Source: a virus
Lineage: Duplodnaviria > Caudoviricetes
DNA: 64,000 nucleotides
Direction: 5' to 3' (one strand)
Virus record (IMG/VR): IMGVR_UViG_3300028832_000130
Location: 10,780 to 74,779 of that record
Part shown: positions 3,068 through 60,323 of the stretch, piece by piece
Layout of the letters: the number at the start of each line of letters is the position of its first letter
Position numbering within the stretch: position 1 is the first letter of the stretch
Program-made: the position numbers and the translations under genes
Notes under the pieces: generated by a model
The model's input: only the letters and a program-made list of their open reading frames with translations
Database searches by the model: none
Told to the model about the DNA's origin: nothing

Positions 3068-3070
3068 GGT

Positions 3071-3214: not shown

Positions 3215-3225
3215 TATCAATTTAT

Positions 3226-3477
3226 ATGTTTGGTATCAAGATTATCACAGCAAAACGATACAGGCATCTTGTCGGTATCGAGCAGAACTTTGAGCAGGAA
3301 AAGCAGAAATTGCTTAACCAGCTGGATCGCATCGAGAAAGACCTCGACTCTCTCCGTAAACAGCTTAGCGAAAAGATGATGGAAAACAACAAACTCTACA
3401 ATCAAGTACGGGAGCTTGTATCTATCAAGCATTCCTTTCGCAAAAGCACAACAAAGTCAAGAAAGAAAGAACCCTAA
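3226..3477 (+). CDS. Coiled-coil hypothetical protein
   Basis: Heptad pattern LLNQLDRIEKDLDSLRKQLSE. Confidence 0.7.
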   Translation: MFGIKIITAKRYRHLVGIEQNFEQEKQKLLNQLDRIEKDLDSLRKQLSEKMMENNKLYNQVRELVSIKHSFRKSTTKSRKKEP

Positions 3478-10279: not shown

Positions 10280-10291
10280 ATATAAAAGACT

Positions 10292-10546
10292 ATGGATAAA
10301 GAAGATTTTAAAATAGTAAATAATGCGGCCGGTAACCTAGACATTATAAGTAGGGCTATTTCTACACTACAAAATTCTAATGAGCTATACTTTATCACAG
10401 ATTACAGCATCATGAATCGCTTCGACACTAGAGACGCAATAAAAATTCCACAATGCTTAATCGACGAATTTAAGGATAGGCTCATTGCTTACTATGCGGA
10501 AAGATATAATGTTATTGTTGAGGACTTAAAGAAAGTGACGTTATGA
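10292..10546 (+). CDS. Hypothetical protein
   Basis: ORF coupled by ATGA to next gene. Confidence 0.65.
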   Translation: MDKEDFKIVNNAAGNLDIISRAISTLQNSNELYFITDYSIMNRFDTRDAIKIPQCLIDEFKDRLIAYYAERYNVIVEDLKKVTL

Positions 10547-42934: not shown

Positions 42935-45900
42935 TTATTCGATGTCTTGCGTCTTGTCAAGCTCTTCTACGACCATCTGTAGTGTACTGTTGTAGAGTGC
43001 TCTTGCGTTCTTTCGCTTTCTGCCTTCTGCTTGGTTGGCTGCGGTATTCAGTTGCTTCAACGTCTTTTCTGCCTCTCTTACCATTTCCATGCGTACAAAG
43101 TCCTTGCCCTTTGCTTCTTCCATGTACTTCATGAGGTGTTCAGGATTGCTGCCCATATCGGCTTCGTACCCCTTTATATTGTGATACTTCTCGTTTGCCT
43201 CTTCGCGATACTTACGATACTTAGCCTTGATACGGTACAGGTCTGTGCGCTCGTCGCCCTGCTGCCAGAAGGCGCGGAAGAACTCTATCTTTCGCATGTT
43301 AAAGTCAGCCTCATCATCGGTGAACGCCCATTTATAGGCATCTCCTACGGCAGAGCCAGTGTTCATAAAGAACTTGCCTGGGCCACCAGTATATTGCTCT
43401 AACAGATATTGCATGCTGCTTGGGTTTATCTGTGCCCATCCGCGCTTCACATCGTCACCTCCACTTATATCGTTAAGCCACTTTGACAATGAAATATAAG
43501 CGGAGTTGGTGTTGCCAAGAGTCATCTGGTATTCTGGTGTCCATTCGTCACCTGGGTAGCGGTCTTCCCTAAAGATAGGTTTGCCCGTCCAGCCCAAGTT
43601 CTCGCCTACAGCCACCAATGGAGCTACTGGTGAGCAAATTCTTCCTGCGAATTCTGCTACAGGATTGAACTCGTTGGTAATCTTCGTCTCAAAGTCAACG
43701 GGTGAGAATACGTTTAGGAATCCTATAACTTCGTCATACAACGTCTTGTCAATGGGTTTTAGCTTCGGGAATAATGTGATACCTGCTATCATGTCACCCA
43801 TAGAGTAGAACGCTGCCAGCTCCTGACCCATTGGGATAACAAGGAAGTCGTTCTTTCCACAACCAGGAATCCATCCAGTATAGATACACAAGTTCTTTCT
43901 GCGCACCCACTCTGGCAGGTTTGCATACGGATCGTCGTCGCCATCGCCTCCAGCAAGAGCATAGAGTGCTGCATTGAGTACAGGCATCAGCATGCCCATA
44001 GCGAAAGGTGGTGCTGCATATCGCGTGAGAAGTCTCCCTGCGTACTTATAGTTGATAGAGCCATCTGGATTCTTCAAGCCTCGGAAGATGTTACAGATAG
44101 CCTGCACGGTGGCATTAAAGAACATCTTATTTGCCATCAGTATCTGCGAAGCCTCTCCAGCAATCTTGGCTGCTCTAGTAACACTCTTTTTGTCGCTCTT
44201 GAAGCTTGCCGTCTTTCTGCCTGCCCCCTTCTTGTTAAAGTTTACAGTTACTTCCTTAGCGTCGTAAGCAGAGCGGGCCTTGGTGCGGCCTGCATAGTGA
44301 CGGGATGCGCGGTAGGTAGCAAAGCGAGCATTGTTCTCAATGGCCTCATTCATTGCCTCTACAGCACCAAGTGTCTTATCGAAGAAACTATTTGTCAACT
44401 TCTTTACCTTGCCAGGAGTGCTTAGCATGCCTTCCATCTCCTTCTGCAGTTCTGCCACCTTCTTCATGTGAACAAACCCTGTTATACCACCATTGTCCAT
44501 GAAGTCTTTGAAGTCGCGCTCCATTTCTTTGCTCTCGTCAAGGGTGCCAGCACGATACTTCTTGAACAATGAAATCATGTGTGGCAACTGCTGTCTGTAG
44601 TATTTCTGGGCTTCTGACTCATAGTCCATGCCTTCACGTGCCGCGAGAATGGCACCGAAGTGAGTCCAGTCACGGAGCATATTTCTTCCGAGGAACGTAA
44701 TGTTGTATGATGTGCTAACGGTCTGCTGGAACTGTTTGAGGCTGGCAACCATCTTGTTTACTGTTCCCTTTCCTGACTCATAGCGTAGCTCTCCATTGAT
44801 AGCTTGCGCCATGCGTGGGTTGCCCATTACTATCATGGTCTTGCGCTGTCCGTTAATTATCACTTCGACGATGTGCTCTCTCATGCGCTTCTTATCAACC
44901 TTGTAGTCGAATTTAGCCTTGCTATTCAGTCGCTTTGCCTCGCCTCTGGCTTCCAGTTCTGCCATGCGGGTATTAAAGTCGCTGACAGCCTGCTCAACCT
45001 CCTGCGGGGTCATGTCTGAATCAATGCGTGGGAAATCAACTATAAAGTCTCCCGTTGTCGGGTCAAGCACAGCCCATGTGTCTTGTATCTTTACAAGGTC
45101 GTTTTCGTGTGCCTGACACAGGCGGTAGAAGTGTTGCTTCACCACATTCTGATTACCGTCAGAGATAGCTTTATAGGTCATGGCGAACAAGGTTGAAAGC
45201 GGATAGTTGGCTTTGCTCTTACGACCCTTGGCATTTCTCAACAGACCTCCCACACTGTTTTTATTGTTGGATTCTGTCATATACTGCCAGTGGTCTTGTG
45301 CTGCCTCTCCCTCATTGAATCCTCGCATAGGAACGTAGAAGTGGAACATGTTCTTTATGCGGTCGTGAACCGACTCAGACAACATGCCGCAGTCTCTGTA
45401 CTTATCCAATCCAAGGTTTGAACACAAGTTTATCTGCTCCCAGAGCCTGTTACGCAACTCATCGCCCATCTTCTCTTCCTGTTTTTGCAGTTTGCTGAGA
45501 ATGTCGGCCTCGCTATAGTTACCTTTCTCGTCACCATACATATCTGTAAAGCCTGAGTAGTCATGCTTCTCTGCATTATAGCGCTTGTTGATGTTGGACT
45601 TGATGAAGTCATCCATTTCCTCTATATACTGAGCAAATGAAATCTCTCCATCCTTCAACTTCTGATAGTTCTCGTTATTCATTGCAGCAAAGTCCTTCTC
45701 CATCTCGTCGAGAAGTTCTTTTTCATCATCTTCCAATTCTTTGCTGCGCTGAGCCTTTAGCCAATCTCTTACATAGAGCACTCGGTTGCGCTCAAAGCCA
45801 TGCTTGGTGAAAAGATAGCGGTCAACATCACCCGTCTGCCATCCCATCTTTTCGCATAGCTGTAATACGGTTCCTTCAAGTGGTCTACGGTAGATATTGG

Positions 45901-48900
45901 TAAACTGCTCCTGCTCTGTGAATGTCTTGCCATAAGAAAGGTTCATGGCCTGATAAGCGTTCTGAGAGTCGGGTATTTCCTCATCGTGGGCAATAGCCTC
46001 CTGACCCTTCTTGAATGTTATCATGTCGTCCTGACCAGCTTCCGTAACTACGGTTTCTGCACGGTCAATACGCTCATGATATACTTCCTTTGCAGAGTAT
46101 TCGCCCATTTCACGAACACCCTCTACCTTTTCTTTGCGCTCTTTCTTCCAGCGTTTTGCTGAAAGCTCAATGGCTTTGAGTGGGTCTACTACTTCTTGTA
46201 GTTCGGGTTCCTCTTCAGAGCGTACGACGTTATCTCCCCGTTCTCGTCCCTGTTGATTACTTCTACGAACCTGGGTTGCTGGTGCCTGTCGATTTTCGCC
46301 AAGTCGTCCAAGCTGATTGTTCCTTTCTTCTTTTCTTCCATTTTGTATATAATTGGTTAGTTCTCCTGCAAAGTTACGGATTTCTTGTCTATTATCCAAG
46401 AACTCGTTCATAAATTTTTCAGTACCGATATTTGCTACCACCACATTACCGATAAGGAAAGAGCAAGCTTCTTCCAGTCTTTCTTCCTTTTCGTATGCAT
46501 TTCTGATGTGCATATAGATGTCTGGGCGATTGGCTTTCAGCCAGTCATAGCAGGCTTGCCCGTATCTGTTACGAGCATCTGCCGGCATGCGCTGCCAATA
46601 GCCATGTACTTGTTCGTGCCACCACGCTTCTTCTGCTTCTCTGATGTCACGAAGTTTCTCCCCAAACACTACAACAACATCACCCTTGGGGAAATATCCG
46701 GATGCGGTATCAGGCTCGTTGTAAAGTTCCTCAATCTCGTTATAGACATCATCACCTACCTGTCCCTTCAAAGCCTCCAAGTCAGCGCGGCTGTTAACGA
46801 CATAAGTAGGCACGCCACCATTAACTCCAAAACGACTTGAAATACTGTCTACGAAGTCTTTTATATCGTCTAATAGAGAAATCTGACGCTCCTGTCTCCA
46901 ACTATCTGCTGCCTGTTCAATGGCTTCCAACGGATTGTTGGTAGTAATCATGCGCTTGGGAGATTCCTCTTCCTTATGCTCTTCGGCAACTGTTACGCCT
47001 AGCTCGTCGAGACGTTTCATGACGGCATCGAGATTGCTGCGCTTGAACTCGGCCTTCATCTTACTGCTGCCTTCAAACTGACCGTCCATCAGAGAAAGGA
47101 GGGTTTCGTCGTTGTAGTACTTAGCTCCCTTCTTAGCAGACTTAGGCACAGTCAACTCCAAGGTGTCATAGCTGTGGGTGTTCCAGTTCCAATCATTGGT
47201 AACACGGATTGACACGTCACCATCTGCACTCTCTACCTTGTCGCGGTTGTACTTCAATTCGTCCTTCTTGGCAGAGATTGGCGTCTTACTGGTAAGTCCC
47301 TTCGGTTCGAAGTTGTCTGGCATCAAGATACCCTGACGCACTTCGCCTGTATCGGTAGTAAACGAAATCAGCTTACCGCCTACACCCTGCTCACGGGTAG
47401 ATACAAGAGCTTTCAGCAGATTACCGGTAATGATATAACCATCCTTGCGGGCTGCAGTAGATGTCAGCTTATCCCAATTATCCGTGTTCTGTTCCAACAC
47501 TTTCAGCGTATTGGCAATATTCTGTCCGAACCAACCGCCTCTCGCCTGTGCGGTAAGAGAATTGATGGTGGGGAATATCTGTTCCTTCTCGCCCTTCTGC
47601 TGCTTTACCTTGCCATTGATAGGGATAGTAATCTTACGACGGCCATCAAGCGTAGCAAACGATATGGTGCTGGCATTGGGTGACATGTTATCACTAATCT
47701 TAATGTCAATCAGCTTACCAAATCCAGGCTCAAAGGTCATACTTCCGAGGTCGTAGATGTTGCTAGGCAAAGCATAGACACCATCCGTAGTGAAGGTTTC
47801 AAGAGCATCGACAAACACCTGTTTCTGTGCTTCGATAGCGGCAAGTGCATCGTCAAGCTTCTTAATCTCTTCCTTGTACATGTTCTCATACTGTATCTGA
47901 CCGTTGCGTTCTATCTCTTCGTCGGTCATTTCGTTCTTCTCCTGAGCTTTCTTGGCACCCTTAACATAACGTTCCTGTTCGGCTGCTGCCTTCTTCTTTG
48001 CTCTCTCGGTAATGGTCTCTGTGGTTTCGGCTTTCTTCTTCTCCGCCCACTCGTCAACCTTAGCAAGCGTTTCTTGCTTGTATTCATCCCATGTCTTACC
48101 ACCAAGAAGACGCTCCTGCGAAGCTTTCACCTCACTGGCTTTCATCGGCTTGCGTAGAACATCCATGTTGACTTTCTCTACGTAGGTATTGTCAGCAAAT
48201 GGGTTGTTACTATCCGGATCAATACCTTGCTCCCAAACTTGCTTGCTCAAAGTCTTGGCTTTCAACGGCATTTCGGTAATCTCCAAGTCGTTTTCGCCCA
48301 TTTCGTTCAGTCGGTCTATCTCAGTCTGATAGAGGTCGCTGATTTCTTTAAGCATCTTCTCCTGGTCTGCAACCTTCAAGAGCGCCATGCGACCAAGTAC
48401 TTTGCTTGCGGTTTTTCCTGCTTCACCTTCCTTTGATGCAGAAGCAACCAACTCTTCTGACGGCTTTATCTGCCAGTCATCTCCCCATTTCAAAGGATTT
48501 AGCAGCTTTTCTGCAAGGTCTACGTGTTCTGCGAGATACTGAGTAACGATGTCGTCACCATACTTATTAATGATGTCTTGTACCTGCATTTCGTTGAACT
48601 TCGACTTCTGAGAAGATGTAGTGTTGGCATCCAAAGAGCGAAGCTTTGCTTTCAACATCATCAATAGGCGTTGCTCTGATGGGATAGTAGAAACAATATA
48701 GGTATATCTACTATGTTGCTTCTGTCCTGTTCGATCTGTGCGGCCACGCATCTGCACTTCGTCGTTAATGTCACTCTGTGGCTGAACGACAATCATGTGA
48801 CGCTGGTCTGTGTTTAGGAACTTAATGCCTGCATGAAGGTCAATGCCCGTGCCTGCGCTCTTGTTCATGATAACAGCGTCTACAATGCCACTGTTGAAGT

Positions 48901-51900
48901 CGGAAGCGTTCTTCTTGTTGTCGGTGTCAGTGCGGTTGACGCGCTTAACAGTACCGTCTTCGTTATATATAAACTCCTTTTTTCGTCCTGTGAGTTCGGC
49001 TATGCTGTAGCCTGCCTTGCGTATATAATTCTTAATCACATCAATCGGCGACAGACTCAGACCTGTAGACGAGTTAGCTATAGCTTCCTCGATTTCATGA
49101 TATCTACGCTGACCTTCTTCAGAAAGCCTACTTACAGGTATAGAGGTATAAGTGTCATTGTTGTTGGCATCTGTTTTCTTGATTTTCAGAGTGCTTTCCA
49201 AACCCTCGTGCAAACTCGTGGAAAGGTCAGGCATTGTCATGTCTTCGTCGGAATTCGCCGTTGCTCTGTCTGCTGCACCTTCGTTTGTGTTTTCTACACA
49301 GATAACGGGCTTCTCTCCGTTCTTTAGACACTCTACTGCGAACTTAGCACCTTCTTCTGCCTTTAAAGAGAGCAACACTTTTTTGACAATCTGATGGGTC
49401 TGGCTGGCAAATGGAGTGTTGTTAATACCCATATCTCGTGTACCAGGAGTGTGGTTTACTTCTCCCTGATCTTCTGCAGCATCATCGTTCATCTTGTCAA
49501 TGATGGGGTCAACATAGGTACGCTGAAACTGAATGATGTCATTAAAGAGGCCAATAATCTTGTCGTATTGTTCGTAATGCTTCTTTATGACATCTTCATC
49601 CTCAATGCCCTTCCAGTCTACCGTTACACCAGTCATGTTGCGCTCACGACGTATCATCTGACCTGCTTCTGTCAGAGCCTTAGACATTATCTCTTGGAAC
49701 GTAGCACCACCACGTTTAACGGCATCTATCAACTCGCTAACGGCAACACCTGCCTTACTGATTGCTGTGCGCAGCGAATAAAGAGGCATGTTGTCAGGAC
49801 GCTTAGCAAATGTAGCACTTATATATGTGATGCCTCCTGCTTTAGTAGAAACATATTGCAAGTAGTTTCCTCTTGCACTTTCTCCACCAGCCAAATGGCT
49901 TTCGTCCATTAAGACAATACTATTTCCTGCAAGATTCTCAATTGCATCACGCTTTGCTTGTCCGTTGACATCTGCTTTTGTGGCGGTCTTGTTCTTTCCG
50001 TAACTTCGAGCTTTCTTATTGCCGTTCTCATACTCCATAGTACCGTTTCCTACTTGACTATAGGTGGTAATCATGAAGTCGTACTCAGGCGGCAATTTGC
50101 CATTCTTGTTTATATATTCAAGAACTCGCTTCTGCTCTTTGTCGCTTGGCAGGTCAAAAAGTACTTCGTCTTTGCCGTCTTTTCTTTCTGTAATACGGGC
50201 CTTTATCTTGTCAGAGGCAAGGATAAACGGACGCAAACCATCGCTGTGGATATCCTTTATATCACGGTAAACGCTGGAGAAAAGCTCTGGCTTTGCTGTG
50301 AAATATACAGGGGCCTTGCCATTCTTGACAGCCCAACGGATTAATGCTGCACCCTGTCTGCCTTTACCTATACCGGTTTGGTCGCCGATGATAAAGGCAT
50401 CCCCCTTCTTCATTTGGTGGATAGCAAGTGCTACAGAATCAATCTGCTCTGCTGCTAGTGCTTGATACAGCTCTTCCTTGCTACTATAACCTAGTTCTTC
50501 AACAAGGAACTTATCTACGTCCCCTATAGCTTCAAGCGCTTTCTTTACAACGTCAGCCTGCTCTGCTGGCATCTGAGATTGTAAGTCAAACGGATTTGTA
50601 CTTTGTTTGCGATAAGGAACTTTTTCTGCTCCCAATTCGCGCTTTTGCTCGGGTTGTTTTACTGATAGTCCGGCTCCGCTATCCACAGCGTCTCCAGGAA
50701 GTCGCTGAGAGTTGCTTCCTCCGACAGCCACTTCTCCTGTTCCGTTTTCGCTGGATACAGTTTGGCTCCCTCTTGATTGCTCAGATTGATTCCCGCGTCC
50801 GTGAAGAAGTACAGGTCGTGTGCCCATTCCTCCATTTGTTTCTGGCTGGGCATTTCCTCCCCCTCCTTCGGCTTTGGCGCTTGCATCGCTCCGCTGTACA
50901 TCGACGACAGGCTCAGTTGATAGTTGATGTTCTCCTGAGCTTCTTCCGTCCCGCACATTTCGTACTCCCTTTTCATTAGAAGAACTAACATGTCCATTAT
51001 CAGATAGTCCTCCATTCTGTCCGCTTTCTGCGGTGTGAACACTAGAGGATGTATCTCCGTCGTGTTCCTTGTTACGTAATATGTCATCGTTTACTCGTTT
51101 AAATAATTCATCGTATGTCTTAACCTGCTCGGCACGTGCCTTGTCACGTACAGGAGCATATACTGTCGGGTCGTACTTAGGCTTGCGTCCGTTAATGAGA
51201 ATCATTCTGACGGGATAGCCAGTGCCCTGCTTAGTGTAAAGCGCCTTACCGTCCATGTTGATAACGTCGACTACGTTGTAGGCTTGGTACAGATAATTTA
51301 GGAATTGTCTGTCTTTTCCCTGTACGGCACCATTGCGCTTATACTCTGTGTTACCGCCAATGATGATAGCTGCACGGCCATCGTCCTTCATTGCATCGAG
51401 GGCATTGAGTGCCATTTGCTGTTCAAGTGACGAAATCTCATATACTCCCCATTCCTTTGGTAATACGCTGCCGAATGGTGGATTAGTGACGATAACATCG
51501 TACTTCTTCTTGCCAAACGACTTTGTACCGTCTTGACTGGTAACCTCACCAAATCCCTGCTTCTGTAAGTTGGAGAGTCGCATTTCATCAATGTCGTTGA
51601 CGTGCATTATCTCCTTTGGCAGATTGATAGTCAGCATACCGTTGCCGGCTGATGGTTCCAAACCACTCTTAGCCTTTTTCTGCGGGTCTACGAACTTGCC
51701 CATCAAGAACGCCATCGGTGCAGGAGTAGAGTACTGCTGCTTGTTGATGCGGTCATTGTCTCTTGCGCTTAACGTAGGCTGCCATTCATAGAGGTGCTTG
51801 ATATGTTCAAACTTCTGTTCATCATTCAAAGCTTCTGTATTGGCAATGTCTCTTGCGACGTTGACAATCTCTGCCTCTACCAACTCCTGCAGGTCAGTCA

Positions 51901-54900
51901 TGCTCATATCATCAAGACCGTATTCCTTGGCTCTCGCCTTTACTCCCTGCATAGTCTTTAAGGAAATGTTACCGTGCATCACTGCATCAAACAATGCCTC
52001 GTTGACAAACTTGCTAAAAGCAGCAATCTTATCCTGTCTGTCTGCAAACTCCGCTGAGTCGCCTTCCAGTTCTTCGGCTGGTTTTGCAGCTTCTTGCTGC
52101 AAAGATACATCATTTTCTGCTTCGTTGTTCTCCGTTTTGTTAACGTTAACAGCTTGGTCTTCTGCCTTACCATTCTTTAACTTTTCAGCATGTTCACGGA
52201 GGCGCATACGCTCACCATCAACGGTGTATTTCTGCTCCCATACTTCACTGATAAAGTCGTTGATAAGGCTATCATCCCAACCAAGAACATCTTTCAGCTT
52301 ACGGCCAATGGCATCTGCCATCTGCTTACTCCATGCTTGGAAGTCATGAATACCACTCTTGATATAGGCATAACCCACCTTTGATGATACTCTCAACAAG
52401 TCGCCAAGGAAAGCACGCTGGGCTTCGTTGGTACCAGTCATCATATCAAATAGGTTCGTCTGTGCCTTGTCGTTGCCTTCAAGACCCTTGCGCATGAACT
52501 TACCAAGTACGCTATTGCCCTTGGCATTATTCAAGAAGTCGTCGAACTCCTTCAAGGCTGCATCAATATCTGCCTGGTCTTGGGCTTTGCGTTCCTGCTC
52601 GGCTTTAAACTCAGTGGCAGCTTGATTGATAGCTTCCATCGGGTCGGAAGTCTCTTTGCGCAGCTGTTCTCCTACTTCGGCATTATGAAGCTGTGCCTCT
52701 ACTTGCTCCATGATTGGGCCAAGATTGTTGGCAGGATTCTCCAAAATACCTCTTAACTCAGCAAGGTTCTTTCCTTCGATACGGAAGCGCCCGTCACCAA
52801 TAGGAATACGACCAGAGACATCATCACGGGTTATCCATGCTCTGCCGGAATCCTTGTCGTAGTGGAATTCATATTGCCACTGGGGACCAGTTGACTTCTG
52901 CTCTTCCTTTGGCTGTTGCGCTCTATTATATATACTATTGTAATAGAACTGCGAGATAGCGCTGTTATCTTCGCCCTTCAAGAAGTCTATAGCGTTCAAC
53001 TTCTCGTCCTCGGTAGCCTCGGTATCAGCCATGATCTGCTCTTCGGTAAGAGGATGAAGTGTTAAATATTCCTCTCGGCTCAAAGATTTTGGCTGATTTT
53101 CTTGACTCGTATCAGAATTTTCTGTATCTTTGCCCTCAGAAACATTGTCACCTTGCGTAGGAAGGAGGTCCGGCACAGCTTCTTGCTGTTCAGCTAAGCG
53201 CCATTCAGAGCTGTTGGGTGACAATGATTCGTTTTTATACAGCATCTTGTCATTCATCAGCTTGTCTTTCAGCTTGCTCTCTTTTATGATATGCGAGCTA
53301 ATAGACACCTCCATGCCATCCTGAGAGACAGTAACACTTTCGAAGTGAACGTACTTGGTTCCGTCTGGCTTAACGAATGTTTTAACAAAGATGTATGATG
53401 ATGGACGCTCATGGAATACGCTATCTTCGCTATCCATTTCTTCAAGCACAATGTCTGGATTGGTAATAGTTTCAAGCAACATACCATACTGCTGCTCTCT
53501 TCCTTTTACAAACATCTTCTCTTTCTGGTGCTCACCCATCTTTACGCTTCCGACAGGTGTGCTAACGTTGTTCTGCCAGTTTTCATCGTTAATCTCTATG
53601 ACGGGTGCGACAGTTGCATGCTCCTTCATTGCTTCTATTGTCGCTACAGCATCCTCTTCTGACATTCCCAACGGCCGTTGTGTAACTGGGGGCGCAAACG
53701 GTAATCCACCCGTAGGAATGTCGGCGTTCTGCTCTAAGGTTTCTCCTTCTTCCGGCTCGTAGTTCTCTTGGTTGACAAGAGCGTTCTCTGCTTCAGCTAC
53801 ACGGTTCTGTAACTGGTACTCTGTGAGGTCGTACTTGTCAAGAGCACTACGGAACATCTCTTCCAGCTCACGGCTGATATCCTCGGTGTCGAAACGGTCA
53901 CCGCTAGACTCCCATACTTGATGTACGAAAGCATCCCATGTCATACCGTCACCGCCATTCTCACGACGGGCTGTAAACATGCTCTGCACCTTGGCGGCAT
54001 CTTTGCCAATACCCATATCCCAACCAAGAGCCTGACCGAAGGAGTCGGGGTCGAACATGCGACCCTTGCCAAGCCATGAAGAGATAAGTTCGCGGAGGTC
54101 ACGCCAAGCAGAGAATTCATCGTCGAACAAGTCGCCATAGATAAGCTTAGCCATCTTGATACGCTTGGCATAGCTGGGTACACGTCTGCGGTCAAGCAAC
54201 CATCTACGACCATCGGCTGTTCCCTTTTTTGCGGCAATATCCTGCAAGTCTTTCTCCGTAATCTCTTCTGCCTTGCGGCGTTCCTCTTCTTCCTTGGCGA
54301 TAAGGCCTGACACCTTCTGAGTGTGTGCAGGTTGTATCTCTTCTGCTTTCACACCTGCCTGTAATGCGGCATTGAGTATTTCGTCAGCCTTCTTCTTGCT
54401 CGTAGCCTGGCTCATCTGCTGAATGAAAGGCTGCGGGTCAACGTAAGGAGGATTGAGTTCAAGATAACGTGCCTTTACCTTATTATAATAGTCAACGATA
54501 GCCTGCAGACGCTTCTGCTCCATAAGGTCTTCCGGCTCAAAGTCGCCATTCTGTATCTTCTTGTTAACCTTGTCAAGCTGCTTCTGTGCCTTGTTGATGT
54601 TGGCCTGCGACATCATGTTAACGTCCCAACCATCTTCCTGCATGTCGTTGATGGTCTCGTCGATGCTCTGCTGTCCTTCGTGATACAGCTTGGCACCCGT
54701 CTTTTCGTCTACAGGAATCTGTGCGGGTTGCTGTTGGAGCTGTTGTGTAGTATCAGCGGCAGGAGCGGGTGCCGAAGGTTCGTTTGCTCCAGTAGCATTC
54801 GCGCCACCTGCCTCACCTCCGACATTCTCGCTCTGTACCTGCTGTTGTGGTGCCTGTTGGTTCAATGTGCCATTGGGGTCGATAACCGTTGTTACGTTTT

Positions 54901-57900
54901 GACCAAGACGTTCACGCTCCATTTCCTCGAACTGGTCAAGGTTATAAGCGTTTCGTCCTATCGTATAGCCATCTGTATCACTTAACTGCACAAATTCACC
55001 CGTTGCATCATCAAATCCTATAATCAATCCAGAGGCGGAGTTGGTTATCTGTCCTTGCGAATTTGTAGTGATATCACCTGATACTAGGGTGTAGGTATTT
55101 GTACCATTGGTAATAGTCAGCACATTCTCGGTATCTGGTTGACCGTTGATTTTTCCTTTGAAAGTATGACGTTCACGTGACTTTTGTGCCTCTTTATCAA
55201 TTGCCTTTGCAGCTTCATTAAGCATACTTTCATAACGTGCCTTGGCATTATAGTAGTCAACCATAGACTGACGCTGTTCTGGTCTGAACGTGGTAAGCGA
55301 AGCGATAATTTCCTGCGGGGTGAGTTCCGCCTTCTCTCTACTTTCCACTTCTTGTTTCAGGTCCTCGTCCTTGTCAAAAGCTGCCTGACGTGCTGCTTGT
55401 GCCGCATTCCATTGGTCTTGAATAACCTTGCCTACATTATTCTGTGGGTCGATTGGCTCTTCTGTGCTGACAACTTTTTCTACGACCTCCTGTCCTGCAT
55501 TAGCACCCTTTTGCTGCTCATGCTCTACATGAACTTCATTGGAAGGGTAGGCTAGCTGCTCCAAGAAGTCGCGTGCCTGGTCTTGCATCTGCAAACCTTC
55601 CTCGTCAAGCTGCATGGGGTCTTGCTCTGCCAGCCACTTGACTGTGCCAGGGGTCCAGCCATTTTGTGCTTCAAACTCTGCAATCGCGGCCTGCGTTGCC
55701 TTCGCTTTCTCGACAACTTTGTTGAGTTTGAACTCTTGGAACTGCTTGCCAAGGGTTGTGTTTGGGTCATTCATCTGGGCTATAGCCTCTGCTTTGGCTT
55801 CTTCGCTAGTCCATGTGCCACTGTTCAGGCCCAAGAACTCGTCGATGATGTCATTAGCTTCTGAGAAACTAAGCTTAGTGCTCATGCTCAGATAGTCCTT
55901 ATAGTCTTGATGCTGCTGTTGCATCTTCAACTCGCCTTCATAAGCTTTGGCTTCTTCCTCGGTGTCGAATGACTGCTGGCTGATAGTGTTGCCGTACTTG
56001 TCGGTTGATGTTACCTGCCATTGCTTCTTTCCATCTTCTCCAGTAACTTCTTTAAGAGAGGAAAACTCCATGCGAGGCTGATAATCCACCATTTCGGCAC
56101 CTTCTTTCTCCAAAACGGCCTGCGTATATTTCAGAATGGCCTTTTTTCCCTCTGGAGAATAGACTGACGCATTTGTTTTATTACCGTATTTGTCTCTCTG
56201 CTTACTACTTCCCAGAATATAAGTGAGTGAATTCTTTAGTTCGCGAGGATCGGTGTAGGAATTGTCTATCATTGATTTAATATCTCCCCACAATTCGTCA
56301 CCGAATAGCTTTGCGTTTGCTTCGCTGACCTTATCAGGGTTGTAGTTAATCTTATGACCTACAAATCCTCCTGTATGAAGGGCTGACATAAAACCACCCA
56401 TCAGGGCAACGCCACAGAAAGTATCAATATTCTGCTGTAGATTGAACACACCAGTATCTTCTTTTGTATCAAAGGTCATGTCACCAACAGTAGCTGCGTT
56501 GGCGATATTTCCAATAACCTCTTCAAGATACTCATTACCTACACCATGCCACTGTGTTTTCTTGGCAAAATCTGCTAGACCTTGCGAGAAAGCACCGATT
56601 CCTTTTCCTGCAACCAGCTCATAGATAAACTTCTGTGCTTTGTTAAGGCTTACACCCTCAACGCTTCCAGTTGCTTTAAGCATTTTGCGCCCAGCCTTAC
56701 CAATAACAGCCTTTCCAATGACCTTTCCAAAGTAATCACTCAGGAAACCGAAGTAATTTCCGGCCATTTCTGACCAGTTCTCAATACCGGTATTGGTGAA
56801 TGCCTTAACAAAAGCCATCAATGGCTCTTCCTTGGTGTTTGGCTTAATGCCATTAAAAGTAATATCTCCGTTTGCATCTACGCCGATATTGACTTCTCCC
56901 GTCATTCTGCGTACTGCATCGGCTGCGGTTCTTGCAATTCCTGTTGTTGAAGCCATTCCATAGGCTCCTGCTATGTCTGCTACGGCTCTTGTGGCTATCT
57001 TGCTGGCAACAACACTCTTGATGTGGTCTCTTACCCACTTGCTACCATAACGCTTAACGGCATATTTTGTAAGCGTCTTCGTTGCTGCCTCTCCCAATCC
57101 GCTTAGTGGATTCAGAGCCATTTCAAGCATGAACGGGAGAGATTCGCCAGTTACCATACCAGCCTTTGCCCATCCGCTTAACTGCTCGTTATATTGCCCA
57201 CTGACAGCATTATTATATGCCCAATCATTCAACAAGGCTTTCTCGTTTTCAGAAAGTGGTTGCCCATTATCCTGTTTCATGATGGCCTGCATGATGGTAT
57301 AGCTTCTGTCAAACTCATTTATACCAAAATCCCATGTATCTTTCTTCGCTGCAGTATTCCAAACGTTGCGGGCTGCTGTAACGAGGCCAAGATTGCCAAT
57401 TCCGCCTTGCTGTTCGTAGCGATATTCATTGAGCAAGTCCATACTCTCCTGAACAAGGTCGCGACGGTGCCCAAGCACGTTTTCTTCTTTTGCGATGTCT
57501 TGCAACTCCTTACCATAAGCGCCAATACTCTCTTTTATCTGCTGCGATGAGGGTACAATGCCTATAACAGAAAGTGGATGGGTGACGTTATCAACGAAGT
57601 CAAAGAACTTGTCGAGGAAGGACTTGTCGCCTTCTGCTTTTTCTCTTCTGGCCTTCAGCTCTTCATATTGCCTATAGATGTCGTTCAACGACTTTTTTCC
57701 TTGTTCTTCTATCGAGCCAATAAATCTCTCATTGTTTGTAAGCTTTCTAAGCTCCTGCTCGGTGTCGTTGTACTCCTTTGCAAGTTGTGAATACTTCTGT
57801 CTGTCTGCTTCGCTGACCTTGTGCAAGCGTCCTTCCAGGTCTACCCAATCATGCGGAATCTTGTCCATTTCCTTTTTCAGGTCGTCTCGACGTTCAAAAG

Positions 57901-58471
57901 CATCTCTGATACGACGGTCTATATCTGCAAAATACAAAGCGTCCATGTCTTGCTGTCTCTTGTTGGCGTCAACCATAACGTTGTACCTCTCGGCATTGGA
58001 GGTAATATAGCCTCCATTATCCTCAACAACGCGTCCTTTTCTTCCTAACTCTGGCGCTTGTCCCAGCGATTTCTCTTGATAAGTTAGCGCATCGGCCTCC
58101 CTTTGGTTAATCGGAAGTGCAGCATTAAAGGCAGCATTCTCCCCTTGGTTTGCAGTAATGTCAAAGGCCCACTGTTCTTGCCATGTTGGTTTGTATGGCT
58201 GATTGGCTTGCGCTTGTTCTGGCTGTGGGGCAATCTGTGGCTGCTGTGCAACCGTTTGCGCAGGTGCTTGCTGAGGCTGTTTTTTCTGCTGTCCTTCCAA
58301 AACTGCATCAGGGAACTGGCTCAGAAAGCCTTTACGCTCACTGACTGGAATGTCATACGTGTTACCGTTTGCTTGGTATGCTACAGTAGCATTTGGGTTG
58401 TCCTTCTCGAAGTTGGCTACTACGTTCTCTGGAATGTCGTAGGTCTGACCGTTAAGTTTATATACTGGCAT
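42935..58471 (-). CDS. Giant polyvalent DarB-like injected protein (PBECR-like nuclease, N6-adenine MTase, strawberry-notch SF2 helicase, zincin, LPD38-like tail), 5178 aa
   Basis: MTase GLEPSAGNG and VTNPPF; helicase GDQTGIGKG, MDESH, VQMRGRTDRTGQ; WWHEQVH...EE zincin; VSTPVGSVKMG...YIFVKTF nuclease-like; located in the ejection/lysis operon. Confidence 0.88.
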   Translation of the reverse strand: MPVYKLNGQTYDIPENVVANFEKDNPNATVAYQANGNTYDIPVSERKGFLSQFPDAVLEGQQKKQPQQAPAQTVAQQPQIAPQPEQAQANQPYKPTWQEQWAFDITANQGENAAFNAALPINQREADALTYQEKSLGQAPELGRKGRVVEDNGGYITSNAERYNVMVDANKRQQDMDALYFADIDRRIRDAFERRDDLKKEMDKIPHDWVDLEGRLHKVSEADRQKYSQLAKEYNDTEQELRKLTNNERFIGSIEEQGKKSLNDIYRQYEELKARREKAEGDKSFLDKFFDFVDNVTHPLSVIGIVPSSQQIKESIGAYGKELQDIAKEENVLGHRRDLVQESMDLLNEYRYEQQGGIGNLGLVTAARNVWNTAAKKDTWDFGINEFDRSYTIMQAIMKQDNGQPLSENEKALLNDWAYNNAVSGQYNEQLSGWAKAGMVTGESLPFMLEMALNPLSGLGEAATKTLTKYAVKRYGSKWVRDHIKSVVASKIATRAVADIAGAYGMASTTGIARTAADAVRRMTGEVNIGVDANGDITFNGIKPNTKEEPLMAFVKAFTNTGIENWSEMAGNYFGFLSDYFGKVIGKAVIGKAGRKMLKATGSVEGVSLNKAQKFIYELVAGKGIGAFSQGLADFAKKTQWHGVGNEYLEEVIGNIANAATVGDMTFDTKEDTGVFNLQQNIDTFCGVALMGGFMSALHTGGFVGHKINYNPDKVSEANAKLFGDELWGDIKSMIDNSYTDPRELKNSLTYILGSSKQRDKYGNKTNASVYSPEGKKAILKYTQAVLEKEGAEMVDYQPRMEFSSLKEVTGEDGKKQWQVTSTDKYGNTISQQSFDTEEEAKAYEGELKMQQQHQDYKDYLSMSTKLSFSEANDIIDEFLGLNSGTWTSEEAKAEAIAQMNDPNTTLGKQFQEFKLNKVVEKAKATQAAIAEFEAQNGWTPGTVKWLAEQDPMQLDEEGLQMQDQARDFLEQLAYPSNEVHVEHEQQKGANAGQEVVEKVVSTEEPIDPQNNVGKVIQDQWNAAQAARQAAFDKDEDLKQEVESREKAELTPQEIIASLTTFRPEQRQSMVDYYNAKARYESMLNEAAKAIDKEAQKSRERHTFKGKINGQPDTENVLTITNGTNTYTLVSGDITTNSQGQITNSASGLIIGFDDATGEFVQLSDTDGYTIGRNAYNLDQFEEMERERLGQNVTTVIDPNGTLNQQAPQQQVQSENVGGEAGGANATGANEPSAPAPAADTTQQLQQQPAQIPVDEKTGAKLYHEGQQSIDETINDMQEDGWDVNMMSQANINKAQKQLDKVNKKIQNGDFEPEDLMEQKRLQAIVDYYNKVKARYLELNPPYVDPQPFIQQMSQATSKKKADEILNAALQAGVKAEEIQPAHTQKVSGLIAKEEEERRKAEEITEKDLQDIAAKKGTADGRRWLLDRRRVPSYAKRIKMAKLIYGDLFDDEFSAWRDLRELISSWLGKGRMFDPDSFGQALGWDMGIGKDAAKVQSMFTARRENGGDGMTWDAFVHQVWESSGDRFDTEDISRELEEMFRSALDKYDLTEYQLQNRVAEAENALVNQENYEPEEGETLEQNADIPTGGLPFAPPVTQRPLGMSEEDAVATIEAMKEHATVAPVIEINDENWQNNVSTPVGSVKMGEHQKEKMFVKGREQQYGMLLETITNPDIVLEEMDSEDSVFHERPSSYIFVKTFVKPDGTKYVHFESVTVSQDGMEVSISSHIIKESKLKDKLMNDKMLYKNESLSPNSSEWRLAEQQEAVPDLLPTQGDNVSEGKDTENSDTSQENQPKSLSREEYLTLHPLTEEQIMADTEATEDEKLNAIDFLKGEDNSAISQFYYNSIYNRAQQPKEEQKSTGPQWQYEFHYDKDSGRAWITRDDVSGRIPIGDGRFRIEGKNLAELRGILENPANNLGPIMEQVEAQLHNAEVGEQLRKETSDPMEAINQAATEFKAEQERKAQDQADIDAALKEFDDFLNNAKGNSVLGKFMRKGLEGNDKAQTNLFDMMTGTNEAQRAFLGDLLRVSSKVGYAYIKSGIHDFQAWSKQMADAIGRKLKDVLGWDDSLINDFISEVWEQKYTVDGERMRLREHAEKLKNGKAEDQAVNVNKTENNEAENDVSLQQEAAKPAEELEGDSAEFADRQDKIAAFSKFVNEALFDAVMHGNISLKTMQGVKARAKEYGLDDMSMTDLQELVEAEIVNVARDIANTEALNDEQKFEHIKHLYEWQPTLSARDNDRINKQQYSTPAPMAFLMGKFVDPQKKAKSGLEPSAGNGMLTINLPKEIMHVNDIDEMRLSNLQKQGFGEVTSQDGTKSFGKKKYDVIVTNPPFGSVLPKEWGVYEISSLEQQMALNALDAMKDDGRAAIIIGGNTEYKRNGAVQGKDRQFLNYLYQAYNVVDVINMDGKALYTKQGTGYPVRMILINGRKPKYDPTVYAPVRDKARAEQVKTYDELFKRVNDDILRNKEHDGDTSSSVHTAESGQNGGLSDNGHVSSSNEKGVRNVRDGRSSGEHQLSTEPVVDVQRSDASAKAEGGGGNAQPETNGGMGTRPVLLHGRGNQSEQSRGSQTVSSENGTGEVAVGGSNSQRLPGDAVDSGAGLSVKQPEQKRELGAEKVPYRKQSTNPFDLQSQMPAEQADVVKKALEAIGDVDKFLVEELGYSSKEELYQALAAEQIDSVALAIHQMKKGDAFIIGDQTGIGKGRQGAALIRWAVKNGKAPVYFTAKPELFSSVYRDIKDIHSDGLRPFILASDKIKARITERKDGKDEVLFDLPSDKEQKRVLEYINKNGKLPPEYDFMITTYSQVGNGTMEYENGNKKARSYGKNKTATKADVNGQAKRDAIENLAGNSIVLMDESHLAGGESARGNYLQYVSTKAGGITYISATFAKRPDNMPLYSLRTAISKAGVAVSELIDAVKRGGATFQEIMSKALTEAGQMIRRERNMTGVTVDWKGIEDEDVIKKHYEQYDKIIGLFNDIIQFQRTYVDPIIDKMNDDAAEDQGEVNHTPGTRDMGINNTPFASQTHQIVKKVLLSLKAEEGAKFAVECLKNGEKPVICVENTNEGAADRATANSDEDMTMPDLSTSLHEGLESTLKIKKTDANNNDTYTSIPVSRLSEEGQRRYHEIEEAIANSSTGLSLSPIDVIKNYIRKAGYSIAELTGRKKEFIYNEDGTVKRVNRTDTDNKKNASDFNSGIVDAVIMNKSAGTGIDLHAGIKFLNTDQRHMIVVQPQSDINDEVQMRGRTDRTGQKQHSRYTYIVSTIPSEQRLLMMLKAKLRSLDANTTSSQKSKFNEMQVQDIINKYGDDIVTQYLAEHVDLAEKLLNPLKWGDDWQIKPSEELVASASKEGEAGKTASKVLGRMALLKVADQEKMLKEISDLYQTEIDRLNEMGENDLEITEMPLKAKTLSKQVWEQGIDPDSNNPFADNTYVEKVNMDVLRKPMKASEVKASQERLLGGKTWDEYKQETLAKVDEWAEKKKAETTETITERAKKKAAAEQERYVKGAKKAQEKNEMTDEEIERNGQIQYENMYKEEIKKLDDALAAIEAQKQVFVDALETFTTDGVYALPSNIYDLGSMTFEPGFGKLIDIKISDNMSPNASTISFATLDGRRKITIPINGKVKQQKGEKEQIFPTINSLTAQARGGWFGQNIANTLKVLEQNTDNWDKLTSTAARKDGYIITGNLLKALVSTREQGVGGKLISFTTDTGEVRQGILMPDNFEPKGLTSKTPISAKKDELKYNRDKVESADGDVSIRVTNDWNWNTHSYDTLELTVPKSAKKGAKYYNDETLLSLMDGQFEGSSKMKAEFKRSNLDAVMKRLDELGVTVAEEHKEEESPKRMITTNNPLEAIEQAADSWRQERQISLLDDIKDFVDSISSRFGVNGGVPTYVVNSRADLEALKGQVGDDVYNEIEELYNEPDTASGYFPKGDVVVVFGEKLRDIREAEEAWWHEQVHGYWQRMPADARNRYGQACYDWLKANRPDIYMHIRNAYEKEERLEEACSFLIGNVVVANIGTEKFMNEFLDNRQEIRNFAGELTNYIQNGRKEERNNQLGRLGENRQAPATQVRRSNQQGRERGDNVVRSEEEPELQEVVDPLKAIELSAKRWKKERKEKVEGVREMGEYSAKEVYHERIDRAETVVTEAGQDDMITFKKGQEAIAHDEEIPDSQNAYQAMNLSYGKTFTEQEQFTNIYRRPLEGTVLQLCEKMGWQTGDVDRYLFTKHGFERNRVLYVRDWLKAQRSKELEDDEKELLDEMEKDFAAMNNENYQKLKDGEISFAQYIEEMDDFIKSNINKRYNAEKHDYSGFTDMYGDEKGNYSEADILSKLQKQEEKMGDELRNRLWEQINLCSNLGLDKYRDCGMLSESVHDRIKNMFHFYVPMRGFNEGEAAQDHWQYMTESNNKNSVGGLLRNAKGRKSKANYPLSTLFAMTYKAISDGNQNVVKQHFYRLCQAHENDLVKIQDTWAVLDPTTGDFIVDFPRIDSDMTPQEVEQAVSDFNTRMAELEARGEAKRLNSKAKFDYKVDKKRMREHIVEVIINGQRKTMIVMGNPRMAQAINGELRYESGKGTVNKMVASLKQFQQTVSTSYNITFLGRNMLRDWTHFGAILAAREGMDYESEAQKYYRQQLPHMISLFKKYRAGTLDESKEMERDFKDFMDNGGITGFVHMKKVAELQKEMEGMLSTPGKVKKLTNSFFDKTLGAVEAMNEAIENNARFATYRASRHYAGRTKARSAYDAKEVTVNFNKKGAGRKTASFKSDKKSVTRAAKIAGEASQILMANKMFFNATVQAICNIFRGLKNPDGSINYKYAGRLLTRYAAPPFAMGMLMPVLNAALYALAGGDGDDDPYANLPEWVRRKNLCIYTGWIPGCGKNDFLVIPMGQELAAFYSMGDMIAGITLFPKLKPIDKTLYDEVIGFLNVFSPVDFETKITNEFNPVAEFAGRICSPVAPLVAVGENLGWTGKPIFREDRYPGDEWTPEYQMTLGNTNSAYISLSKWLNDISGGDDVKRGWAQINPSSMQYLLEQYTGGPGKFFMNTGSAVGDAYKWAFTDDEADFNMRKIEFFRAFWQQGDERTDLYRIKAKYRKYREEANEKYHNIKGYEADMGSNPEHLMKYMEEAKGKDFVRMEMVREAEKTLKQLNTAANQAEGRKRKNARALYNSTLQMVVEELDKTQDIE
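46189..46341 (-). CDS. Putative overprinted 50-aa protein (+1 frame inside giant gene)
   Basis: MEEKKKGTISLDDLAKIDRHQQPRFVEVINRDENGEITSYALKRNPNYKK; A-rich start context; host frame reads as low-complexity linker. Confidence 0.45.
   Translation of the reverse strand: MEEKKKGTISLDDLAKIDRHQQPRFVEVINRDENGEITSYALKRNPNYKK
50659..51087 (-). CDS. Putative overprinted acidic 142-aa protein (+1 frame inside giant gene)
   Basis: Protein-like composition while the giant frame is a G/S/N/R linker between MTase and helicase. Confidence 0.6.
   Translation of the reverse strand: MTYYVTRNTTEIHPLVFTPQKADRMEDYLIMDMLVLLMKREYEMCGTEEAQENINYQLSLSSMYSGAMQAPKPKEGEEMPSQKQMEEWAHDLYFFTDAGINLSNQEGAKLYPAKTEQEKWLSEEATLSDFLETLWIAEPDYQ
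53102..53226 (+). ncRNA. Antisense promoter plus structured RNA inside giant gene
   Basis: TTG-N20-TATCTTTG (53125-53132) followed by CATTGTCACC...GGTGACAATG 10-bp closing stem. Confidence 0.45.
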
Positions 58472-59843: not shown

Positions 59844-60323
59844 TTATTTCTTCTTTATATTATTATCCTTGTCAAGGTAGTATTTGTCATAGCCAAGAAA
59901 CATATTTGCCTCGGCAATACGACGTCTCTTCAAGCCTACTAGCGGTTTACCTCCTGCATTGACCCATTTCACTATCTGGTCGGTGATTTCTTCGTCAGGA
60001 TCATCTGCAACAATCTTCTTCAATAAGGTAGAATTCCTAAAAGCACCCTCGCCAAGATTGAAATTCCACGAAACCAAGGCATCAAAGCACTCTTGTCTGA
60101 AATTGATACCCAGCTTGTTCAGCGTGCGCTCAATAGGCGCAATATCCTCTATCAGCAAGTCCTCTGCACGCATCTTGTCTATCACCTCGTTAGGCTTTAC
60201 ACATTTCGTATGCCCGTAACCTATAGTAAGAACTCCTGCAGGGCACTTGTAAGACTCTAGGCGAAGACCTTCAAAGTCCTTGATAAGCTGTAAGCCATTG
60301 CGGCTCGTCGTCATCTTCTTCAT
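59844..60323 (-). CDS. Endolysin, GH24 lysozyme
   Basis: IKDFEGLRLESYKCPAGVLTIGYGHT; FDALVSWNFNLG; GLKRRRIAE. Confidence 0.93.
   Translation of the reverse strand: MKKMTTSRNGLQLIKDFEGLRLESYKCPAGVLTIGYGHTKCVKPNEVIDKMRAEDLLIEDIAPIERTLNKLGINFRQECFDALVSWNFNLGEGAFRNSTLLKKIVADDPDEEITDQIVKWVNAGGKPLVGLKRRRIAEANMFLGYDKYYLDKDNNIKKK

Follow-up and report, generated by a model that had tools for sequence, protein, structure and literature searches.

Comparative evidence for an overprinted gene in the interdomain spacer of a giant effector gene of Bacteroidales phages

Can an open reading frame that lies out of frame inside a giant phage gene be a gene in its own right? The question is raised by a 64,000-nt stretch of DNA from a virus of the Caudoviricetes (hereafter, the window), in which a reading made from the letters alone had pointed to a 142-aa acidic product hidden within a 5178-aa gene, between its methyltransferase and its helicase. 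The positions of the open reading frames (ORFs) and of the Pfam matches confirm this arrangement, with the nested ORF at 50659-51087 on the minus strand. To our knowledge, claims of long genes that overlap another gene out of frame, in tailed phages as in bacteria, have rarely been backed by more than the open frame itself, and annotation pipelines discard such genes. Among the full-length giant-gene records that we examined, none annotates the nested gene, which is called solely on short contig fragments. We conclude that 50659-51087 is very probably a real, selected and overprinted coding gene in the +1 frame of the interdomain spacer of the giant gene.

The giant gene and the frame nested in it

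The host gene (42935-58471, minus strand) encodes a 5178-aa large polyvalent protein with LPD14, PBECR2 nuclease, N6-methyltransferase (MTase), Sno-type helicase and LPD38 domains. In the complete virus record, the Pfam matches of this ORF are LPD14, PBECR2, MTS, AAA_34, Helicase_C_4 and LPD38, and the union of several unrelated effector domains with LPD domains in one polypeptide fits a large polyvalent protein. The MTase domain (51077-51769, minus strand; giant aa 2235-2465) carries an NPPFG motif, is matched by Pfam at giant aa about 2266-2379 and ends in the conserved block YDELFKRVNDDIL. The Strawberry-notch-type helicase (48275-50638, minus strand; giant aa 2612-3399) begins with the conserved block LGAEKVPYRKQS and is matched by AAA_34/Helicase_C_4 at giant aa about 2671-3399. 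Between these two domains lies the spacer (50639-51076, minus strand; giant aa 2466-2611), which is G/S/N/R-rich, poorly conserved and always open, and which carries the nested gene. The domains beside the MTase-helicase core vary: PBECR2 in the window, InPase and DdrB-ParB in the cultured gut Bacteroides phage BS-TP4. With its many effector domains, its core of a methyltransferase and a SNF2/Sno helicase and its LPD domains, the host gene resembles the large polyvalent proteins, P1 DarB among them, described by Iyer et al. (2017; PMC5512222). That paper makes no mention of overlapping, nested or frameshifted genes in polyvalent proteins, and the nested gene differs from the known architecture in being an addition to it.

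The nested gene comprises 142 codons and a TAA stop (50659-50661), starts with an ATG at nt 7384 of the giant gene and lies over giant residues 2462-2604. The sequence-only reading had counted 26 D/E and 11 K/R by hand; both counts are exact for the translated product, P0001 (pI 4.35), which also contains the two peptides that it quoted, MEEWAHDLYFF and WLSEEATLSDFLETLW. Its description of the giant frame over the same bases as a G/S/N/R linker agrees with the composition, which includes 25 G, 22 S, 10 N and 9 R among 143 residues.

At the nested start (51085-51093, minus strand), the frame reads TAA (51093-51091), ACG and ATG (51087-51085), and the ATG spans two giant-frame codons, GAT and GAC, within the invariant RVNDDIL block. 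The sequence at this start, TAAACGATG, is identical in all nine giant-gene relatives of the window clade, even at the synonymous site of the Asp codon from which the nested ATG is built. The BS-TP4 clade has a second conserved context, GACAAATG, with the ATG in all clade sequences, and the product begins with M-x-Y-Y/V in nearly all clusters. At the other end, the nested stop falls just ahead of the next conserved giant-frame block.

The sequence upstream of the nested ATG is A-rich, and A-rich leaders are usual in Bacteroidota. We found no Shine-Dalgarno sequence there, a scan for sigma-70-type promoters upstream of the nested gene gave nothing meaningful and no Bacteroidetes TAnnTTTG box was found there by visual search. 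With no promoter-like site upstream, the nested gene can be expressed only if ribosomes initiate internally, within an ORF that is itself being translated. Translation would start at the conserved ATG, behind its A-rich leader, on the giant gene's own—late—mRNA. Alternatively, ribosomes could enter the nested frame by programmed +1 frameshifting, producing a truncated giant protein of about 2460 aa that ends after the MTase and bears an acidic alternative C-terminus. Alternative C-termini of this origin are common in phage structural genes, as in lambda G/GT and T7 10A/10B, and conservation is high in the nucleotides that immediately precede the nested ATG. However, a nested-frame stop precedes the ATG by two codons in the window clade and by 6-10 codons in the BS-TP4 clade, so that the shift would be confined to a few bases, with no slippery sequence or known +1 motif. 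The ATG itself is conserved there in both clades and is absent only from the copy L006, where the domain continues the reading frame of another protein. We therefore regard frameshifting as very unlikely, and internal initiation at the nested ATG is our preferred reading.

Conservation and selection in related phages

The length of the nested ORF is not convincing by itself: when the giant gene was shuffled by synonymous codons, the longest +1 run was 112 ± 22 codons, runs of at least 143 codons appeared in 8.6% of the shuffles and the nested region itself was open in 1.6%. In a hydrophilic spacer with little L/I/V/M, +1 stops are few, and a long frame could occur there without any gene. Indeed, the giant gene holds a second long +1 run of 135 codons (53944-54348, minus strand), encoding an R/C/L-rich peptide, which served as an internal negative control. 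In the comparison with the relative L004, the giant frame of this run retains 71% identity and its nested frame 46%. This run does not have the selection properties of the nested gene and was rejected as a chance ORF.

We compared 79 loci, which are the IMG/VR relatives of the MTase-spacer-helicase segment that we examined (34-65% identity in the giant frame); 83 further IMG/VR matches lie outside this count. The +1 frame of the spacer is open over 110-164 codons in all 79 viral contigs; in the same loci, the +2 frame stays open for no more than 17-76 codons, and the giant frame is stop-free. Given the giant-frame protein and the codon usage of each relative, the probability of an open +1 frame is 0.008-0.13 per sequence. 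The sequence-only reading had named as counter-evidence, besides a lack of homologues, an interruption of the nested frame in relatives and conservation solely in the giant frame. No interruption was found among the 79 loci checked, and the conservation is the opposite, with amino-acid identities among close relatives of 0.69-0.88 in the nested frame versus 0.51-0.71 in the giant frame. Frame-specific dN/dS, which the same reading had proposed as a check, was 0.12-0.21 for the nested frame of these close relatives versus an apparent 1.4-2.9 for the giant frame. Across all comparisons, the values were 0.09-0.4 for the nested frame versus an apparent 0.7-3 for the giant frame, and the stronger constraint on the nested frame was repeated in the BS-TP4 clade and in 123 ungapped pairs across all clusters.

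Each of two overlapping frames constrains the other, which biases dN/dS, and the phase pattern of the substitutions is the more robust measure. Substitutions at giant-frame positions 1/2/3 number 18/14/52 in the MTase flank, 46/29/155 in the helicase flank and 52/22/18 in the spacer. Both flanks thus peak at giant position 3, whereas the spacer peaks at giant position 1, which is position 3 of the nested frame (chi-square p = 9e-15). This switch of phase coincides exactly with giant aa 2465-2605. Identity, dN/dS and the phase switch all agree with the earlier claim that selection acts on the alternative frame and not on the giant frame. As judged from these comparisons, the nested frame is under purifying selection and both frames have been kept open in all relatives examined. 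Over this segment, the giant frame need just stay open and hydrophilic, and so acts as a spacer.

The possibility of a chance ORF, which the shuffling results and the 135-codon run had left in place, is already refuted by the comparative data. A chance ORF would not account for a nested frame open in all 79 relatives, for a three-base periodicity of substitutions in phase with that frame, for the conserved start codon or for the copy L006, which has kept the nested frame intact but not the giant one; the confidently predicted fold of the product also argues against it. The comparative sequence evidence puts the nested ORF far beyond chance. Finally, a nucleic-acid element in the spacer (RNA structure, or a packaging or regulatory DNA site) is disfavoured to the point of near-zero probability as the source of the conservation: although the close pair L002-L003 diverges less in the spacer than in the flanks, such an element would produce neither codon-periodic substitutions nor a conserved amino-acid pattern at 25-40% identity, and would not keep a frame open across sequences whose DNA no longer aligns.

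Homologues of the nested protein, the search for which had been proposed as another check, do exist, including copies outside the giant gene. An exhaustive HMM search yielded 13 family clusters, all of 69-153 aa and none in frame within a long protein, and the distant members of the family occupy the same spacer of the giant gene. The window clade was linked by hhalign to the clade of BS-TP4, which has the nested gene (75% probability, E 2.5e-5). In BS-TP4, which is carried as a lysogen by Bacteroides salyersiae BG8, the nested ORF lies at L017:8454-8798 (about 10044-10391 of PQ571277.1), and its product begins with MEQKYY. In searches of the phage collection, tblastn with P0001 gave no match and blastn gave BS-TP4 as its sole match, over the helicase. 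The one match from a scan of GTDB genome contigs, L018, was spurious and consists of 33 residues in an alternative frame of gyrB. This restricted distribution suggests that the nested gene most likely originated de novo, and birth within the spacer is the most likely course, since a stretch with little L/I/V/M contains few +1 stops. More generally, new genes might arise in low-complexity linkers such as those that join the domains of giant proteins.

A classical counterpart is Rz1 of phage lambda, a lipoprotein of about 60 codons that binds Rz and is encoded with its own start in the +1 frame inside Rz. As in that case, a complete gene lies wholly inside another on the same strand, in the +1 frame, in a dsDNA phage. 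The present gene differs in its length (103-153 codons), in its soluble acidic product and in its location in the spacer of a 5000-aa effector gene. Overprinted genes are also known from small viruses (phiX174 E in D, K, B in A; accessory genes of RNA viruses; reviewed in PMC8227390). There too, the out-of-frame gene overlies an older one and encodes a new protein of limited taxonomic range and orphan fold, and one frame is more constrained than the other. However, those genes belong to genomes under extreme size limits and the nested gene to a 75-kb tailed phage, its older frame is now a mere linker, and it has moved twice to other elements.

Copies of the nested gene outside the giant gene

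Two contigs assembled from several samples (L006 and L007) share with the window just the segment 51085-50629, at 81% nucleotide identity. The nested frame there forms the C-terminal 140 aa of a 229-309-aa ORF, its ATG is gone and the giant frame contains seven stops. An unfused 91-aa parent of the N-terminal part, P0021, ends exactly at the fusion junction of L006, and homologue searches with the N-terminal half of the fusion returned just itself and P0021. This half presents the pattern GAGRKR...ISICVSDDVIKWIE...FVQSHLQRL and two predicted helices, which fit an RHH protein; it has no Pfam match, and a fold search with the fusion model gave only generic three-helix matches at this part.

A second capture is found in L035-L038, where an intact nested ORF of the P0016 type lies directly behind an RHH-like gene. 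Both captures thus sit directly behind a gene for an RHH-like regulator, and about 0.4 kb from a candidate defence pair. Neither L006 nor L035-L038 has an MTase or a helicase, and just about 10 and 45 flanking residues, respectively, accompany the nested module. Its retention in these elements suggests that it can function without the giant protein in cis. The element carrying the L006 copy is unrelated to the giant-gene phages, and the nested DNA has moved out twice. These copies complete an unusually full comparative proof by adding a natural control, in which DNA outside the giant gene keeps the nested frame alone.

The arrangement recalls the Acr-Aca systems, in which an anti-defence gene is paired or fused with an autoregulator; AcrIIA1, for instance, joins a DNA-binding repressor domain to an anti-CRISPR domain. 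In L006 the module likewise forms the C-terminal part of a fusion with a small RHH-like protein; in L035 the gene for that protein immediately precedes it. The two differ in that the RHH assignment comes here from the sequence pattern and the two predicted helices, with no Pfam match.

The nested product and its possible function

The nested products of the 79 loci present a pI of 4.05-5.26 and a net charge of -4 to -25; part of this acidity could follow from the purine-rich codons of the spacer. AlphaFold2 modelled P0001 with a pLDDT of 75.7 and a pTM of 0.73 (10 sequences), with a core above 90, and the nested domain scored 86-97 in the model of the fusion. The product is thus a protein of about 105-155 aa, acidic and mostly helical, with a confidently predicted fold. 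Its most conserved segment, the N-terminal YY...PLVFTTQKAEK, is of low confidence in the monomer model.

Searches of Pfam, PHROGs and PADLOC with P0001 and 22 family members found nothing consistent, with E-values up to 10 allowed for Pfam and PHROG; a Tad8 match at E 0.028, given by one family member alone, was considered noise. A sequence profile search of the PDB returned zero matches. Structural comparisons (Foldseek against PDB and BFVD, an ESM Atlas shape search and VIA-align wide) gave nothing above background: Foldseek had no match at E ≤ 0.001, and the best Z of 3.7 came from unrelated helical proteins. An ESM Atlas feature search yielded no usable match. A HicB-like reading of the N-terminal hairpin-helix was set aside, as Pfam did not support it. 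The nested product thus represents a new protein family, and its predicted fold is an orphan.

What could such a protein do? Its composition and context suggest, tentatively, a free-standing protein of phage-host or inter-element conflict, namely an anti-defence factor and possibly a DNA mimic; a DNA mimic or anti-restriction factor was one of the two roles that the sequence-only reading had considered. This suggestion draws on the conserved acidity, on the location in an effector gene of anti-restriction type and on the two captures behind an RHH-like regulator near a candidate defence pair. Ocr (T7 gp0.3) and ArdA are small, strongly acidic (pI about 4) and largely helical proteins, encoded by mobile elements, that evade restriction. 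The nested product is likewise small, acidic, predicted to be helical and encoded by mobile elements, and its negative charge is kept across the family. In contrast, it shows no detected sequence or fold similarity to them—nor did the Pfam, PHROG, PADLOC, PDB and fold searches match it to any known anti-restriction protein—and its expression is probably late rather than immediate-early.

A dedicated partner of the giant protein—a chaperone, a packaging aid or an inhibitor—is a rather unlikely alternative, with Rz1 and Rz as the precedent. An inhibitor of the neighbouring domains was the other role considered in the sequence-only reading. It would silence the MTase-helicase, or another effector domain, within the cell that makes it, and rival elements would have captured its gene to disarm incoming phages. 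In favour of a partner, the nested gene accompanies the MTase-helicase core in each of the 79 loci, whatever the remaining domains, and a shared mRNA would tie the production of one protein to that of the other. The low confidence of the most conserved segment in the predicted monomer is, moreover, often seen for binding motifs. Against a partner stands the retention of the module in L006 and L035-L038, which have no MTase or helicase. The PBECR2 nuclease cannot be a universal target given that it is not detectable in BS-TP4, which keeps the nested gene, and an immunity protein for this nuclease was downgraded on the same ground. A complex prediction of the nested protein with the MTase domain and the helicase N-lobe scored 0.00; run without controls, it carries no weight either way. 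A stand-alone conflict protein is favoured over a partner of the giant protein.

A broader scenario, more doubtful than the conflict function itself, is that a gene born de novo in the spacer of a giant injected effector gene became a universal, independent conflict protein of a widespread group of gut and rumen Bacteroidales phages and was twice excised by unrelated mobile elements, each time coming under the same arrangement with an RHH regulator gene that neighbours a candidate defence system. If true, an overprinted gene would be documented through its entire history, from birth through fixation to escape, and a new family of anti-defence or anti-phage proteins would be added. The nested gene is cleanly testable, since one synonymous change in the giant frame (Asp GAT to GAC in the window clade, Asn AAT to AAC in BS-TP4) turns its ATG into ACG and so removes its start. 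It adds a hidden component to polyvalent DarB-like effector genes, which are common in gut Bacteroidales phages; BS-TP4 was detected in 31% of 930 gut viromes (PMC12694917).

The giant polyvalent gene and its nested frame

The virus record containing the window is complete (74.8 kb) and carries portal, endolysin and neck genes. Its giant gene is a single ORF of 5178 codons (42935..58471, minus strand) with Pfam matches to LPD14, a PBECR2 nuclease, an N6-adenine methyltransferase (NPPFG), a Strawberry-notch-type helicase (AAA_34 and Helicase_C_4) and LPD38. These matches identify the product as a large polyvalent protein as defined by Iyer et al. (2017; PMC5512222), a paper which makes no mention of overlapping genes. 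A 453-aa gene without PHROG match (58479-59840) and an endolysin gene (59844-60323; phrog_7, E = 2e-50) lie directly upstream on the same strand, so that the giant gene and lysis or late genes may share a transcript. On the plus strand, the giant gene also contains four antisense ORFs of 151-183 codons each, all longer than the nested ORF (46385-46840, 48833-49327, 49394-49912 and 51798-52349).

The sequence-only reading had proposed a 142-aa ORF in the +1 frame of the giant gene. Such an ORF is present at 50659..51087 (minus strand, 142 codons, over giant residues 2462-2604) and starts with ATG; the counts of 26 D/E against 11 K/R and the quoted peptides proved exact, and the giant frame over the same bases is G/S/N/R-rich, as had been described. 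The nested ATG is built from the giant-frame codons GAT GAC within the invariant block RVNDDIL, and the start-context string TAAACGATG is identical in 9/9 relatives, even at the T of the Asp codon, a synonymous site on which the ATG depends. A stop in the nested frame lies two codons 5' of this ATG, and the nested stop immediately precedes the next conserved block of the giant frame. No promoter-like site was found upstream of the nested ORF, from which we infer translation by internal initiation on the mRNA of the giant gene. The leader is A-rich and free of Shine-Dalgarno sequences, which would fit initiation in Bacteroidota.

The length of the nested ORF alone is insufficient to exclude chance. 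When the giant gene was shuffled synonymously, its longest +1 run measured 112 +/- 22 codons and reached at least 143 codons in 8.6% of shuffles, and the nested region itself was open in 1.6% of trials. A hydrophilic spacer poor in L/I/V/M, such as that between the methyltransferase and helicase domains, contains few +1 stops. Another long +1 run, of 135 codons, in the giant gene (53944-54348, minus strand) was rejected as a gene: it encodes an R/C/L-rich peptide with 46% identity to the giant-gene relative L004, versus 71% in the giant frame. This run is a chance ORF and constitutes an internal negative control for the nested ORF.

Conservation and selection of the nested frame

Sequence comparisons indicate that the nested ORF is genuinely a gene, overprinted on the spacer of giant polyvalent genes in phages, and that it is both ancient and universally conserved. 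This core interpretation had been reached from the sequence alone and is supported by the openness of the frame in relatives, the phase of selection and the captured copies. In four IMG/VR relatives (giant frame about 60% identical), the +1 frame starts at the same ATG and reads on for 141-150 codons without a stop (4/4), and the nested peptides are 33-42% identical to the window's product, P0001. Homologues, for which the sequence-only reading had suggested a search, do exist: a word-index search recovered closer copies (71-88% identical), annotated as genes solely owing to their location on short contig fragments, and an exhaustive search by profile, covering 1.8 billion representatives, delineated a family of 13 clusters of 69-153 aa each. 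None of these clusters contained an in-frame member inside a long protein. The distant members examined (P0016, P0017 and P0018) occupy the same spacer, bordered by YDELYKR(V/I)xDDI and (G/S/T)xEKVxY, and their giant frame is open. When the methyltransferase-spacer-helicase segment was used for a profile scan, 163 viral contigs matched, of which 79 full-length loci were fetched (34-65% identity). The nested frame was uninterrupted in all of them: the +1 frame of the spacer was open for 110-164 codons in 79/79 loci and the +2 frame for only 17-76 codons, with no stop in the giant frame. The probability of an open nested frame, conditioned on the giant-frame protein and codon usage of the relative itself, is 0.008-0.13 per sequence. 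The nested peptides of these loci form 15 clusters at 60% identity; nearly all start with M-x-Y-Y/V and all are acidic (pI 4.05-5.26). The nested gene encodes a new family of acidic proteins. The family is apparently absent from 185,579 species genomes scanned with its patterns. The sole bacterial-genome match (33 residues, YPLVFTPQKAS; L018:4001-4105, Epsilonproteobacteria MAG QNFX01000052.1) sits in an alternative frame of gyrB and is spurious.

Among close relatives, the nested frame presents amino acid identities of 0.69-0.88 and dN/dS of 0.12-0.21, whereas the giant frame over the same bases and relatives presents identities of 0.51-0.71 and an apparent dN/dS of 1.4-2.9. Differences at giant-frame positions 1/2/3 number 18/14/52 in the methyltransferase flank and 46/29/155 in the helicase flank, versus 52/22/18 in the spacer, where position 1 is the nested third position. 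This shift at the ORF boundaries is highly significant (chi-square P = 9e-15), and 30-codon windows place it exactly between giant residues 2465 and 2605. The contrast in dN/dS and the phase switch bear out the earlier claim that the overprinted frame, rather than the giant frame, is selected. The same signature recurs when close ungapped pairs are compared in every cluster (123 pairs; nested dN/dS medians of 0.09-0.40). Here the giant frame behaves as a spacer that need only stay open.

A cultured relative, the temperate Bacteroides phage BS-TP4 (PQ571277.1; host B. salyersiae BG8), was found in 31.3% of 930 gut viromes by a study that does not mention the nested gene (PMC12694917). Its polyvalent gene (5391 aa, CDS XPO95421.1) has a domain set unlike that of the window's giant gene: InPase, DdrB-ParB, MTase, Sno helicase and LPD38. 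The MTase-helicase spacer harbors an unannotated +1 ORF of 115 codons, MEQKYYVAKEGD...DWD (L017:8454-8798; PQ571277.1 about 10044-10391), which is conserved within its clade with the same selection signature and with its own conserved start context, GACAAATG. Profile-profile comparison links this clade to that of the window (75% probability, E = 2.5e-5).

Captured copies outside the giant gene

The L006/L007 contigs, independent assemblies from several samples, have only 51085-50629 in common with the whole window, a segment comprising the nested ORF and 30 further nt (81% nucleotide identity). There, a 229-309-aa ORF ends in 140 residues encoded by the nested frame; the giant frame is interrupted by seven stops, and AAG stands in place of the ATG. 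The N-terminal part of this ORF has an unfused parent of 91 aa, P0021, ending exactly at the junction. P0021 matched no Pfam model, and its pattern (GAGRKR...ISICVSDDVIKWIE...FVQSHLQRL) looks like that of a ribbon-helix-helix (RHH) protein.

On contigs L035-L038, the next gene after P0021 overlaps it by 4 nt and encodes 412 aa; its opening, MSYDELYKRVNDDIL, marks it as a fragment captured from another giant gene (giant aa 2452-2654). This gene holds an intact nested ORF (81% identity to P0016); behind the gene, a second nested ORF, of the window type, persists as a 28-codon remnant. A strong match to the candidate defence pair PDC-M12 (PADLOC; E = 6e-127 and 1.5e-57) was found about 0.4 kb upstream of P0021, such that the mosaic element comprises, in order, the PDC-M12 pair (A and B), the 91-aa RHH-like gene, the 412-aa gene and the remnant (L035:3723-7628; also L036-L038). 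In the L006/L007 variant, the RHH-like gene is fused to a complete nested ORF. No other window-like DNA was found in either set of contigs. The fused copy and the intact P0016-type copy show that the nested module has left the giant gene at least twice, each time behind the same regulator-like gene.

Possible function and origin of the nested protein

We tentatively consider the nested product a free-standing conflict protein, putatively anti-defence and possibly a DNA mimic, based on the conserved acidity of the family, its home in an anti-restriction-type effector gene and the position of its captured copies, immediately behind a small regulator-like gene that adjoins a candidate defence system. 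The captured module with this gene recalls the pairing or fusion of anti-defence genes with their own autoregulators. By analogy with Rz/Rz1, the product could instead be a partner or inhibitor of the giant protein, but this is rather doubtful, as the module survives in elements lacking the MTase or helicase. A role as PBECR2-immunity protein is unlikely because BS-TP4 lacks that nuclease, and a +1 frameshift product is very improbable.

The AlphaFold2 model of P0001, built from only 10 sequences (pLDDT 75.7, pTM 0.73; residues 25-110 above 90), predicts a mostly helical protein with a short N-terminal hairpin, and the nested domain scores 86-97 in the fusion model. Searches of Pfam, PHROGs, PADLOC, PDB, BFVD and the ESM Atlas revealed no relative in sequence or fold. 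A de novo origin of the nested gene by overprinting would be in keeping with its orphan fold and with a distribution confined to this group of phages.
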